The notes: generated from the sequence alone by a model not told the origin. DNA of 13,511 nucleotides from a candidate division WOR-3 bacterium (GCA_037444665.1 JBBILZ010000059.1:1-13511); one strand, 5' to 3'; shown: positions 1,575 through 4,774, counted from the stretch's first letter. A program made the numbers and translations.

Positions 1575-2308
1575 TGATGATATTAATATTATTTTCCCAG
1601 TTTGTGCTTGCTGAATCGTTATTTGCAAAAAGATATTATGACCTGGCATCCATTGAATATCAAAGGATGTTCTTTTTTGATACTTCTGCTTATAATAATT
1701 TTCAATTACGGCTCAATTACACAATCGCTGTTCTAAATCAAGATTTTTTCAAAGGTTATGAAGAGGTTGAGAAATTATTCCGCGACTTTCCGGAGATTGA
1801 TACCGAATCAAAGGTCATTTTGGGCAGGGAATCCTATAATTTAGGGAATTATGATATTGCGGTCAATATTTTAAAGTCAACACCAGAAAAGAGATTATTG
1901 GGTCTCTCTTATTTGTTCAGCGGGCAATATTCAAATGCCCTTAAAGAATTCCAGATTTTAGATGGGGTGCTTGCTCAGGAAATTGAGGATTTTATTAACC
2001 GGCCTAAAAAATCGGTCACCAGGGCAATGCTCTTTTCATCAATCCTGCCTGGCACTGGTGAAATTTATGCAGGTAATGTAAAACAGGGCATCCAGGATTT
2101 TTTGCTCACCTCTTTAAGTGGTTTTATATTATATAACTCAATTAAAAATAAAAAATATGTGGATGCGGGAATAATATTCAGTTTTCTCTTTAATCGCTTC
2201 TATTTTGGCTCCATCTCAAATGCCGGGCGTATTGCCCAGATGGCCAATGAAAAAACAGAAATGCAATGGTTAGATTATATAAAAAATAAATATCCAATAA
2301 AAAACTAA
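1574..2308 (+). CDS. TPR-repeat protein with C-terminal membrane region, paralogue of the upstream gene
   Basis: TGATG overlap with previous stop; AESLF...YYDLASIEY, LGNYDIAV; KKS...LFSSILPGTGEIYAG motif parallels the upstream protein. Confidence 0.7.
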   Translation: MMILILFSQFVLAESLFAKRYYDLASIEYQRMFFFDTSAYNNFQLRLNYTIAVLNQDFFKGYEEVEKLFRDFPEIDTESKVILGRESYNLGNYDIAVNILKSTPEKRLLGLSYLFSGQYSNALKEFQILDGVLAQEIEDFINRPKKSVTRAMLFSSILPGTGEIYAGNVKQGIQDFLLTSLSGFILYNSIKNKKYVDAGIIFSFLFNRFYFGSISNAGRIAQMANEKTEMQWLDYIKNKYPIKN

Positions 2309-2334
2309 GGATGTGATTTTGTTTTAAACATCCT
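2308..2334 (+). terminator. Possible terminator hairpin after the TPR operon
   Basis: AGGATGT (2308-2314) / ACATCCT (2328-2334) 7-bp inverted repeat directly after the stop; no clear U-tract. Confidence 0.3.
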
Positions 2335-2338
2335 GGGC

Positions 2339-2366
2339 TTGACTTTCAAAGATTTTTTCGTATAAT
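2339..2366 (+). promoter_or_regulatory. Sigma70-type promoter, likely native promoter of the etf operon (now separated from etfB by IS110)
   Basis: TTGACT-N16-TATAAT; the next host gene on + is etfB once the IS is removed. Confidence 0.7.
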
Positions 2367-2513
2367 AAATGCATAAAGAGAATATCGGCGATAACCAATT
2401 TTGATTTTAATCAGAGCCTTGGGAAATTTTTTTATTTTTCCCAGGAATGGCATTCTCTTAACAAGCATTTTCCCAATAGCTTTATGGAAGTGCCTGAAAT
2501 ATACCTGAAGGAG

Positions 2514-3740
2514 TCAACTATGAAGAATTGGCGCCGGAATCAGAGGTGATTCAGGATGACGAATATCAGAGAAGGTAATTTTTCTGTTGAGCAGGGTATA
2601 GAGGACGCGCAGGAGTTTGTTTGCGGTGGCGATAACGGCTTTTTTATGTTTCATTCCCTGTTTCCTTTTCCGTTCGTAGTAGATACGAAACATTTGGGTG
2701 TAAAGGATAACATCCTGGGTTATCTGATAGATTGTCCGGCGCAGATGGCGGTTACCTCGTTTGGAGATTTTATATTGACCTTTGAATTTTCCGGATTCTT
2801 GAATGATTGGATCAATGCCTGTGCCGGCGATGATTTTTTTATGGGATGGGATATTCTCAATAGTTGGCATTTCAGCGATGAAGTTAGCGGCGGAAAGTTC
2901 ACCAATACCCGGCACCGAAGTGAGGATATTCATCTGTTCTTGATGGCTGGTATTTACTTTTTCAATGAATTTTGGCTTGAGCCGAGCCAATTCTTCTTCC
3001 AATTTAAAAAGTCTTTTGATGCAACTTTTCAGGATTTCCTCTCGGTTATCATCGTCAATACTGATGGTATTGTGAGTTATTTCTATAACTTCGGTGGCGG
3101 TGAGTCTTATTTTTCGGCCTTTGCCACGGGAAATTTTTATAATGATTTCGGTGATTCTTTCCTGATTCATTTCTCGGGCGACTCTTGCGGAAGGGATTTC
3201 CAGCAGGAATTCAAGCATGGTTTTGGTGAGGATGTTATATTTTGTTCCCAGTTCGTTGAAGATATTGAAGGTGATTTGTTTGATTCGGTTTTTAAGTTTG
3301 GCGATTTCCTGGGCGATTATTTCATATTCTCGGCCGAGGAGTTTAGTGGAATTGGTGGTGGTATAGTTTTTGATTTTGTCGGGGTTTTTGAGCAAGAAGC
3401 TGGCGATGGTTTTTGCCGAGATTTTGTCGGTAGTGGTTTTTCGCAAGGTGTTTGCTTTTTTGAAGTTTTTGACCAGCAGGGGATTGAGGAGTGTGATATT
3501 ATAGCCTCTATTGGTAAGGAAATTGAGGATATTGATATGGTAGCTGCCGGTGGATTCAATACCGATTGCGAGGTCTTGTGGGTTGCCGATGGTTTGCAGG
3601 TATTCAAGGATTTCGTTAAATCCTTCTTTGGTTTGAGAGAATCTTTTTTGGTTGATAATTTTTTCTTCTGTGTCAAGGACACAGAGGTCCAGGGTATTAA
3701 GGGATGCATCTATGCCGATAAAATATTTATAATCAGGCAT
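2514..3740 (-). CDS. IS110 family transposase/recombinase (DEDD RuvC-like plus Tnp20 domain)
   Basis: FIGID (D11), IESTGSYH (E62), LLNP, KTTTDKISA (D105, S108), SVPGIG, GIDP..QESG (S316), ISKRGNRHLRR, AVIATANKLLRVLY; SD AAGGAGG upstream of the ATG. Confidence 0.95.
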   Translation of the reverse strand: MPDYKYFIGIDASLNTLDLCVLDTEEKIINQKRFSQTKEGFNEILEYLQTIGNPQDLAIGIESTGSYHINILNFLTNRGYNITLLNPLLVKNFKKANTLRKTTTDKISAKTIASFLLKNPDKIKNYTTTNSTKLLGREYEIIAQEIAKLKNRIKQITFNIFNELGTKYNILTKTMLEFLLEIPSARVAREMNQERITEIIIKISRGKGRKIRLTATEVIEITHNTISIDDDNREEILKSCIKRLFKLEEELARLKPKFIEKVNTSHQEQMNILTSVPGIGELSAANFIAEMPTIENIPSHKKIIAGTGIDPIIQESGKFKGQYKISKRGNRHLRRTIYQITQDVILYTQMFRIYYERKRKQGMKHKKAVIATANKLLRVLYTLLNRKITFSDIRHPESPLIPAPILHS

Positions 3741-3766
3741 GGTGGGGCCTCCTTTTTTGCCTTAAA

Positions 3767-3924
3767 TGGATTAAATAATGGAAACAGGATGCTTTCTCTT
3801 CCATCCTCCAAAGTGATCCGGGATCTATGTCCCAACCAACTTATTGGGAATGGAGAAAGCAGGGGACAGACTCCTTCACGGGCTCTTGGCCCAGGTCGTA
3901 TGTCGTCCCCCTGTTTCCAATCCA
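3767..3924 (-). ncRNA. Putative bridge RNA of the IS110 element
   Basis: Non-coding end 5' of the recombinase with nested stems (given on +): GGAAACAGG 3780-3788/CCTGTTTCC 3910-3918; TGCTTTCTC 3790-3798/GAGAAAGCA 3853-3861; GGGGAC 3862-3867/GTCCCC 3905-3910; GGGC 3880-3883/GCCC 3889-3892. Loop sequences match the target and donor. Exact ends unknown. Confidence 0.8.
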
Positions 3925-3962
3925 TCAATTTTTGTGGCGGATTAAGTTCCATTAGTTCCATA

Positions 3963-3998
3963 ATTATATCAATATTATATCCAAATTCAACATAGGAG
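3963..3998 (-). promoter_or_regulatory. IS110 left-end promoter elements
   Basis: Two TATAAT boxes on minus (3974-3979 and 3963-3968); internal TTGAAT(3985-3990)-N16-TATAAT; the circle junction would give TTGACT-N17-TATAAT. Confidence 0.7.
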
Positions 3999-4003
3999 GT
4001 CAT

Positions 4004-4774
4004 TTGAATATCATTGTCTGCATAAAAAGGGTGCCTCAGACTGCTGAGGCAGATGTAAAAGTTGATGTTTCAGGTAAGGATATAGTTAAAGACCGTCTCG
4101 CCTTTGATATGAATGAGTCAGATACATACGCATTAGAACAGGCAATTTTACTAAAAGAAAAACACGGTGGGACAGTTACAGCCATCAGTCTTGGTTATCC
4201 TGATACTGAGGATACTTTGAGAATTGCCCTGGCAAAGGGGGCAGATACGGCAATCAGAATAAAGGCTGAGGAATTTGGCGAGATTGATGGTTATAAGACG
4301 GCAAAGGTTCTCAGTTCAGTAATAAAAACTTTTCCTTTTGACTTAATACTGACAGGCTGTATGTCAACTGATTATGCCTATTCACTTGTTGGCCAGACAC
4401 TCGCTGAACTTGTTGGAGTTCCTCATGCTACACTCGTTACAAAACTTGAGATTAATGACAATCGTGCACAGGTATATCGGGAACTTGAGGGTGGACTATT
4501 AGAACATCTGGATATTACCTTGCCGTTTCTGGCAACAATTCAAACAGGAATTAATACTCCACGCTTTGCTTCACTCATTGCAATCCGCAGGGCTGCGAGC
4601 AAAGAGATAAAGGTGCTTGGCAGTGCTGATATTGGACAGGACATTCTTGCCAATACAATACTTGAAGAATTGTTCGTTCCTCCAGTTGGCAAACGGGCAG
4701 AGATTCTCACTGGATCAGTGGATGAAGTGGCAACAAAATTATCTACGGTTATAAAAGATAAAGGCTTAATATAA
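4004..4774 (+). CDS. etfB: Electron transfer flavoprotein subunit beta
   Basis: MNIIVCIKRVP, NESDTYALEQA, ALAKGAD, DLILTG, RELEGG, INTPRFAS; TTG start after AGGAGG. Confidence 0.95.
   Translation: MNIIVCIKRVPQTAEADVKVDVSGKDIVKDRLAFDMNESDTYALEQAILLKEKHGGTVTAISLGYPDTEDTLRIALAKGADTAIRIKAEEFGEIDGYKTAKVLSSVIKTFPFDLILTGCMSTDYAYSLVGQTLAELVGVPHATLVTKLEINDNRAQVYRELEGGLLEHLDITLPFLATIQTGINTPRFASLIAIRRAASKEIKVLGSADIGQDILANTILEELFVPPVGKRAEILTGSVDEVATKLSTVIKDKGLI

Follow-up and report, generated by a model that had tools for sequence, protein, structure and literature searches.

A stretch of 13,511 nucleotides (nt) from a candidate division WOR-3 bacterium (GCA_037444665.1, JBBILZ010000059.1:1-13511), hereafter the window, is contig C59 of a draft genome of 2.54 Mb with 37.7% G+C. 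An insertion sequence (IS) of the IS110 family lies in it directly upstream of etfB. Judging from the sequence, we consider it quite likely that this is an IS621-like IS110 element whose left-end bridge RNA specifies the Shine-Dalgarno sequence and start codon of host genes. The locus is made up as follows:

2514..3998, minus strand: IS110-family insertion sequence, 1485 bp with the shared AGGAG/CTCCT counted once; limits from full-length alignment to five related elements
2514..3740, minus strand: recombinase (transposase) gene, 408 amino acids; Pfam DEDD_Tnp_IS110 (7e-26) and Transposase_20 (2.2e-21)
2509..2513, plus strand: right-end junction, AGGAG belonging to the host Shine-Dalgarno sequence; this flank comes from a 4Fe-4S gene locus, not from etfB
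3994..3998, plus strand: AGGAG from the left terminus of the element; restores AGGAGG, 4 nt upstream of the TTG that starts etfB
4004..4774, plus strand: etfB, for electron transfer flavoprotein beta, with a TTG start; host gene of the left-end junction; Pfam ETF (3e-35)

The element is bounded by a short shared core, CTCCT (which includes CT), found at both junctions in every copy with both ends; in the window it appears as the AGGAG at 2509-2513 and 3994-3998. A crossover at TCAAC, common to 2514-2518 and 3987-3991, was considered and rejected, as the empty sites (see below) do not have TCAAC and all homologues align through it to the same CTCCT boundary.

Both Pfam domains of the recombinase, the N-terminal DEDD RuvC-like domain (PF01548) and the C-terminal Tnp domain (PF02371), score above the curated cut-offs. 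The protein matches the IS621 transposase (PDB 8wt6) in two stretches with E 1.8e-23, and its D11, E62, D105 and S316 (ESG motif) align with D11, E60, D102 and S241 of IS621, as counted from the alignment.

The left-end RNA and its two loops

The left end of the element comprises 258 nt (3998-3741, minus) and holds no coding sequence on the minus strand. The minimum free energy (MFE) fold of the whole left end has -83.3 kcal/mol (z = -3.47), equalled by 1/200 shuffles, and consists of an outer stem enclosing two modules, each with stem, internal loop and hairpin. An initial annotation of the window had read the first internal loop as a target loop with two guides; the loop sequences are present where it had placed them, and the stem, internal loop and hairpin are reproduced exactly by the MFE fold. 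The parts of the left end, all on the minus strand, are:

3779..3919, minus strand: candidate bridge RNA core; outer stem 3919-3911 with 3787-3779, from the MFE fold and RNAalifold on eight copies
3861..3912, minus strand: putative target-binding loop module of stem, internal loop and hairpin, from the fold and the comparison of copies
3893..3901, minus strand: putative left target guide AUACGACCU, composed of AU, four variable letters, C and the core CU; same sense as the left flank plus CT
3871..3878, minus strand: putative right target guide UGAAGGAG, complementary to CT plus the right flank
3869..3870, minus strand: UC, candidate handshake guide directly 3' of the right guide; complements GA (positions 6-7) of the right terminus AGTTGA
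3790..3861, minus strand: second module with the candidate donor-binding loop, from the MFE fold and RNAalifold
3963..3990, minus strand: promoter-like TTGAAT-16-TG-TATAAT inside the left end; 10/12 matches, kept in the aligned copies
3974..3979, minus strand: TATAAT, which would follow, at 17 nt, a TTGACT that arises only on joining of the right end (..TTGA) and the core CT in a circle

Very probably, the first loop serves an IS621-type bridge RNA as its target-binding loop. It is closed by the stem GGGGACGAC (3910-3902) / GUCUGUCCCC (3871-3862), and between AUACGACCU and UGAAGGAG stand a GGGC-CAAGA-GCCC hairpin (3892-3880) and a single G (3879). The right guide is the exact reverse complement of the eight bases adjoining the right end (2506-2513) and the left guide matches the left flank plus core at 7/9, both as the initial annotation had it. 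The core was not placed at the second CT of CTCCT, since the left guide ends with CCU directly before the hairpin. The UC that follows the right guide is present in 7/8 aligned copies and is a candidate for a handshake guide as in IS621.

In the second module, the 5' side of the loop (AAGUUGGUU, 3842-3834) pairs with the right terminus TAGTTGA+CT through 6 Watson-Crick and 2 G-U pairs of 9, and the 3' side (CACUUUGGAG, 3815-3806) with CT+CCTATGTT at 7/10. As the donor ends are invariant, covariation offers no test for this loop. The fold as a whole is conserved: across eight aligned left ends, 41 named pairs are formed in 96.6% of 328 cells, compared with 39-56% for slid partners. Compensatory changes are seen in six pairs, all through the single sequence L067, and 0/500 shuffles reach such pairing. 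The window copy has 18 extra bases at 3924-3941 (minus), 5' of the outer stem, which are lacking in seven close homologues.

Promoter-like sites number two, with 0.6 expected in shuffles. The bridge RNA would be transcribed on the minus strand from the promoter inside the left end, and a second, stronger promoter would probably be formed at the circle junction; the position of TATAAT after the joined TTGACT suggests such a junction promoter in this element. RNAalifold also pairs the terminal CUCCU (3994-3998) with the AGGAG of the recombinase ribosome binding site (RBS; 3749-3753) on the minus strand in 7/8 copies, a pairing that would hide this site on transcripts entering from outside.

Insertion sites and agreement between guides and flanks

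The architecture is kept in nine copies, which are few and related to each other. The copies and parts of copies located are:

L002, own genome, end of contig C6: 95% copy, right end only
L034, same family: complete, recombinase 75% identical in amino acids
L035 and L040, same genus: right end and left end, respectively, at contig ends
L036, same order: internally deleted
L064, genome contig: begins 8 nt outside the left end
L065, metagenome: frameshifted
L066, metagenome: recombinase 84%
L067, metagenome: recombinase 49%
L101, same phylum: recombinase 70%

The element is rare, being found at E <= 1e-50 in 4 of 272 genomes of the phylum, the window's own genome included. A phylum-level protein search (272 genomes) added one copy, L101, and a class-level protein search of 132 genomes gave no new copy. 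No relative was obtained in a single-protein search of the genome contigs, while a 50-nt IUPAC pattern of the target-loop module matched 0 stretches in the metagenome contigs and one in the genome contigs (L064). When the own genome was searched with the left end alone, no second left end appeared in the assembly; the 95% copy on C6 is therefore without an assignable guide. At its right terminus (L002, 1490-1505), this copy has GTATT instead of TCAACT before ATGAAG.

Among the copies, the first loop varies at four positions of its 5' side and two of its 3' side, while the stems and the element ends are invariant. The left guides match their own flanks at 7, 8, 8, 6, 8, 7, 6 and 7 of 9 in eight copies (57/72 in total), the poorest fits being those of the degraded L036 and of L066; the right guides match at 8, 8, 6, 6, 7, 7 and 7 of 8 in seven copies (49/56). 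Permuting the flanks gives a mean of 47.9 for the left guide, with 10/40,320 permutations as good as 57, and a mean of 45.0 for the right guide, with 72/5,040 as good as 49; as the copies are related, these figures overstate independence and should be taken as an indication, not as exact probabilities. Between the window (UGAAGGAG / CTCCTTCA) and L034 (UAAAGGAG / CTCCTTTA), guide and flank show a matched change (G>A / C>T), and the right guide fits at 8/8 in both. The expectation of the initial annotation that homologous copies would have their junctions in Shine-Dalgarno motifs, and that the guide letters would follow their own flanks, agrees with these results and with the junctions described next.

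At all eight left-end junctions in the loci, CAT or CAA on the element strand stands 5 nt (seven cases) or 6 nt (one, L101) from the element, with CTCC after these 5 or 6 nt; the CAA at the window junction is the complement of the etfB TTG start. Insertion is antisense to the host gene in each of the eight, so the Shine-Dalgarno target and the antisense orientation proposed at the outset hold there throughout. Open frames begin at that start codon in seven of the eight left flanks (256, >418, 95, >325, >318, 69 and >411 amino acids), and Pfam domains occur in five of these seven frames: ETF (EtfB), Plug, FG-GAP, Fer4 and Peptidase_M16. The eighth flank (L064) is only 8 nt long. On the host strand, the right-end junctions read AAGGAG in 8/9 and AGGGAG in one, the degraded L036. 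L066 is located at the orthologue of the 4Fe-4S gene site. Contigs of public sequencing runs supplied four further left-end junctions with ATG at 6, 6, 9 and 12 nt and further right-end junctions in A-rich tracts ending in GAAGGAG or AAAGGAG, all of them candidate gene starts. The 49% relative L067 (1451-1583) lies directly downstream of the 3' end of a tRNA gene (..CGCGCCACCA), at GTTGGGAAGGAG.

The constant guide letters are AU....CCU and ..AAGGAG, which correspond to CAT-N4-CCTCCTT on the element strand and AAGGAGG-N4-ATG on the strand of the host gene. The tail of the host 16S rRNA is GGATCACCTCCTTTCA. CCTCCTT occurs at 354 sites in the host genome, and CAT-N4-CCTCCTT is the commonest spacing with 84 sites, versus 7, 8, 42, 34 and 15 for N2, N3, N5, N6 and N7. 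For the full 15-nt guide reading, the host genome has 0 sites within one mismatch, 5 at two, 45 at three and 518 at four. The etfB site, with three mismatches, is 1 of only 50 sites within that limit in 5.07 million positions, and the 4Fe-4S site differs at four by our own count. As many sites fit the constant part and few come near the full reading, the constant part would set the class of site and the variable part would only bias the choice within it. The target had been called near-universal: this stands for the constant part, with its 84 sites, and fails for the full reading, to which no site comes within one mismatch. Both 'near-universal target' and 'precisely programmed' are too strong.

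The two flanks of the element in the window belong to different sites. On contig C84 of the same assembly (L061), the window flank 2297-2513 recurs at 99% over 217 nt and runs on without interruption, as CCTGAAGGAG / GATTAATG, into the gene of a small 4Fe-4S protein. On contig C26 (L050, same assembly), an acyl-CoA dehydrogenase gene is followed by TAAGGAAGGAG / GTCATTTG and then by the etfB start, with the first 111 nt (window 3999-4109) at 100% identity; the true etfB site is AAGGAAGGAG / GTCATTTG. The same two empty forms occur in contigs of the public runs X1, X2, X3 and X6, with loose ends at 2513 and 3994, and in the five same-genus genomes that have both flanking parts, these two parts are on different contigs. 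The element is thus flanked by halves of two different Shine-Dalgarno sites. The initial annotation had taken the sequence left on removal of the element, CCTGAAGGAGGTCATTT, for the etfB RBS; since both empty sites exist uninterrupted, that sequence is a chimera of the 4Fe-4S (C84) and etfB (C26) sites. As both halves are Shine-Dalgarno sites, the interpretation of targeting is helped, not hurt, by this correction. Against the true etfB site, the window guides match at 7/9 (left) and 7/8 (right), and against the 4Fe-4S site at 5/9 and 8/8.

In run X1, the element has a depth of about 60 compared with 20 and 17 for the flanks, and at least three right-end and at least three left-end junctions are present. 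Among the X1 matches listed, none joined the left end to the 4Fe-4S gene, and none joined the right end to etfB upstream sequence. The mixed flanks may reflect an assembly join across a repeat of about three copies, or they may have arisen by an element-mediated rearrangement that fused the 4Fe-4S upstream region to the etfB operon.

The open frame on the complementary strand

The plus strand of the element is open from 2550 to 3995 and carries two frames:

2556..3995, plus strand: open frame of 479 codons, ATG at 2556, codon-aligned to the recombinase; ends 3 nt before the element end
2520..2549, plus strand: leader frame of nine codons, MKNWRRNQR; its ATG is 6 nt after the captured host AAGGAG and its stop lies inside an internal GAGGTGA, 6 nt before the long-frame ATG

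The recombinase has one TTA, TCA or CTA codon, versus 19 expected from host usage, and among 917 genome frames of at least 350 codons the only others with at most one such codon lie on contig C120. This 9.8-kb contig has long frames without TTA, CTA and TCA codons and translations of G+C-rich appearance, unlike the 38% G+C genome, and is probably a contaminant of the bin. At 38% G+C in the host, the open frame cannot be an effect of composition. Antisense stops number 3-39 in 18 distant IS110 relatives with a locus G+C of 0.29-0.50 and 1-5 in eight with 0.51-0.67. The frame is open in L034 (475), L066 (475), L101 (478), L067 (451) and the truncated L064 (410), and its only break in L065 coincides with that of the recombinase frame. 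A further 17 database proteins of 377-479 amino acids match the long frame.

Five intact copies (the window, L034, L066, L067 and L101), the partial L035 and the frameshifted L065 share one layout: host AAGGAG, 6 nt, ATG, leader, a stop inside GGAGGT(A/G)A and the long-frame ATG after one or two codons. The leader has nine codons, and six in L067. The long frame ends at a TAG inside the rebuilt TAGGAGG in four close intact copies and at an earlier TAA inside the left end in L067. In the C6 copy (L002), leader and long frame are not in the same reading frame owing to a 1-nt indel.

Identity of the long frame is lower than that of the recombinase (55 vs 75%, 65 vs 84% and 29 vs 50%), the differences being concentrated at recombinase third positions. 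An AlphaFold2 model of the long frame from 16 aligned sequences gave a mean predicted local distance difference test score (pLDDT) of 26.4 and a predicted template-modelling score (pTM) of 0.16, with no confident fold. It appears that the frame is kept open while its product is not a conserved folded protein. A tentative explanation, which we hold to be possible though rather doubtful, is that the frame of 475-481 codons acts as a translational relay that avoids polarity and leaves the element nearly harmless to the host gene, so that openness and not the protein is selected. Ribosomes on a read-through transcript would be carried across the 1.5 kb and handed to the host start codon; the long frame would use its own GGAGG and ATG just after the leader and would end at the TAG inside the rebuilt AGGAGG. 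The purging of antisense stops, the faster evolution of the 'protein' relative to the recombinase and the lack of a confident fold fit such a relay. As the host has 38% G+C, the frame is the cleanest evidence so far of selection on the complementary-strand frame of such elements.

Alternative explanations and known relatives

The observed anatomy, fold conservation, guide/flank agreement and junction position suggest the following course of events. The RNA would be made, bind the recombinase and direct recombination. The left guide, AU-NNNN-C-CU, which has the sense of the left half of the target, would pair with the bottom strand, and the right guide, NN-AAGG-AG, with the top strand of CT-CCTT-NN. 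Jointly, the guides would specify CAT-N4-C/CT/CCTT on the element strand; on the host strand this would be read as AAGG-AG-G-N4-ATG, that is, the consensus Shine-Dalgarno sequence at its commonest spacing and the first two bases of the start codon, while the 4 + 2 variable letters would favour some of these many sites over others. With crossover at the CT core, the element would come to lie between Shine-Dalgarno sequence and start codon, always antisense to the host gene, for which the terminus CTCCT would rebuild AGGAGG.

Several points weigh against this interpretation, beginning with the relatedness of the copies mentioned above. The guide matches are imperfect, being 7/9 in the window, 6/9 in L036 and L066 and 5/9 for the window guide with the left half of the 4Fe-4S site, whereas IS621, in the available text of its description, preferred perfect matches at all nine non-core positions (PMC11208160). 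The 8-mer match of the right guide is not significant by itself, as TGAAGGAG occurs twice in the window versus 0.49 expected and 15/200 shuffles reach two; its significance comes only from the homologues. Covariation cannot test those guide letters that are constant across copies. Moreover, the AGGAG of the right guide also complements the element's own left terminus CTCCT, so that target and donor share 5 nt, not 2, and the assignment of the loops is blurred. The pairing of the donor loop is partial only, the six compensatory pairs are located in the outer stem and the second module, and the stems flanking the target loop, being invariant, show no covariation and are uninformative either way. 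No match was found with Rfam 15 in 2300-4200 at E up to 1, and Rfam 15 may hold no bridge RNA family. Finally, this clade has Ser as its fourth DEDD residue, whereas mutation of D105 in IS621 abolished recombination according to the available text of PMC11208158. The residue in question is Ser108 (TDKISA; 3417-3419, minus), and the same Ser is found in P0001, P0002, P0013 and L034 (for L034, the column is invariant in the A2 alignment). By a simple motif search, Asp stands at the fourth DEDD position in 86/120 homologues, with 31/120 falling outside the search pattern.

Three other explanations were considered. The preference for Shine-Dalgarno sequences might stem not from the loop but from contacts between recombinase and DNA, or from homology of the CTCCT terminus with the target, and the complementarity would then be a by-product of a common purine-rich motif. 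CTCCT is indeed common to donor and target at every junction, the 8-mer match alone is within chance and several copies match at 6/9 only. However, the variable loop letters track their own flanks in the permutations, in nine copies the matching letters fall in identical alignment columns of a conserved internal loop, and experiments on IS621 have shown this same layout; we regard this explanation as very unlikely. Likewise, the first loop could be regulatory, with GAAGGAG as a Shine-Dalgarno mimic that titrates ribosomes or pairs with the CUCCU terminus to control translation of the recombinase, or it could be the donor loop. A perfect Shine-Dalgarno-like GAAGGAG in the loop, the pairing of the terminal CUCCU with the recombinase AGGAG in 7/8 copies and the complementarity of AGGAG to the left terminus of the element speak for this explanation. 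On the other hand, no start codon follows the loop GAAGGAG, the loop changes along with the flanks whereas the element ends stay constant, and the second loop fits the donor ends better (6 + 2 of 9 on the 5' side); we hold this explanation to be highly improbable.

Another explanation is that the loop once guided insertion and the window copy is a fossil, inactive through its DEDS active site, with nothing 'aimed' today. Ser108 at the place of IS621 D105 in the window, L034, P0001, P0002 and P0013 would be in keeping with this, as would the broken copies L065 and L036. Nevertheless, members of the Ser-bearing clade occupy numerous distinct sites across different genomes. In one sample, two sites are present both with and without the element, whose depth is about 60 against about 20 for the flanks, and the window, L034, L066 and L101 have intact versions of both frames. 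We consider a fossil unlikely.

In IS621, the left guide pairs with the bottom strand and the right guide with the top strand, with the core in each pairing, and the first 104 nt hold a 5' stem-loop and the target loop; for IS110 elements, the circle junction rebuilds a promoter (available text of Durrant et al. 2024, PMC11208160). Handshake guides have been described for IS621 in the accessible part of Hiraizumi et al. (2024, PMC11208158). The present element agrees with IS621 in its homologous recombinase with RuvC-like DEDD and Tnp domains, the CT core, a putative left-end non-coding RNA with two internal loops of which the target loop is 5', a dinucleotide after the right guide that complements donor positions 6-7, and a -35 box that would be complete only once the circle junction has formed. 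The IS621-type layout recognized at the outset, with a 5' target loop, a left guide in the sense of left target plus CT and a right guide complementary to CT plus right target, is thereby upheld. The element differs from IS621 in its target, which is here the Shine-Dalgarno sequence and start codon and in IS621 a repetitive extragenic palindromic (REP) element; in the stretch shared by donor and target, CTCCT (5 nt) versus CT; in the protein, 408 versus 326-328 amino acids; in the Ser at the fourth DEDD position; and in a full-length open frame on the opposite strand. The RNA here is read from sequence alone.

For the mixed flanks, a comparison is offered by CazIS110-1, for which 'direct transfer' has been reported, that is, the left junction (LT-RD) and right junction (LD-RT) are separately transferable to a new target (bioRxiv 10.1101/2025.10.25.684509, text available in part). 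One-ended transfer of this kind would leave an element between halves of two targets, as in this contig; the flanks here are read from contigs, which cannot separate rearrangement from an assembly join.

The targeting is not of a new kind, as IS900 of the same family is already on record with a motif of this sort and an open reading frame (ORF) on the complementary strand. As the title of a 1997 paper by Doran et al. reportedly puts it, IS900 targets translation initiation signals. The target motif of IS900 (Mycobacterium avium subsp. paratuberculosis, IS110 family) is CATGNNNNNNTCTCCTT, CATG-N6-TCTCCTT, and a second ORF, 'hed', spans the whole element on the strand complementary to the transposase, without an RBS and start codon of its own (PMC8141618, from the part of the text available). 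The literature searched gave no paper naming both IS900 and 'bridge RNA'. The available texts of Durrant 2024 and Siddiquee 2024 contain neither 'IS900' nor 'Shine-Dalgarno', and their supplements may list such targets; in the accessible text of a paper that mentions IS110, target sites and Shine-Dalgarno, the last term comes up in one passage, on a fluoride riboswitch and not on the target choice of IS110.

The comparison with IS900 is one of published description, not of sequence relatedness. In both elements the target consists of the start-codon complement, a spacer and CTCCTT, insertion falls between Shine-Dalgarno sequence and start codon in one orientation (here at 8/8 left-end and 8/9 right-end junctions), and a full-length ORF runs on the complementary strand. 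The spacer is shorter here (CAT-N5-CTCCTT), and the long frame is provided with a GGAGG and an ATG of its own, both described as absent from IS900 hed; the relay, if true, would also explain this enigmatic ORF. Since Shine-Dalgarno targeting by IS900 has long been known, the biology of the present element is no new principle. If our interpretation holds, it would be a natural bridge RNA whose target recurs hundreds of times in a bacterial genome, at a set position with respect to genes, and such promoter-proximal, orientation-fixed insertion would be of practical interest. It would join two separately known facts, the choice of targets by IS110 bridge RNAs (2024) and the insertion of IS900-type elements at translation initiation signals (1997), and the guide letters, directly readable as AAGGAGG-N4-AT, suggest how the IS900-type habit of targeting is achieved.

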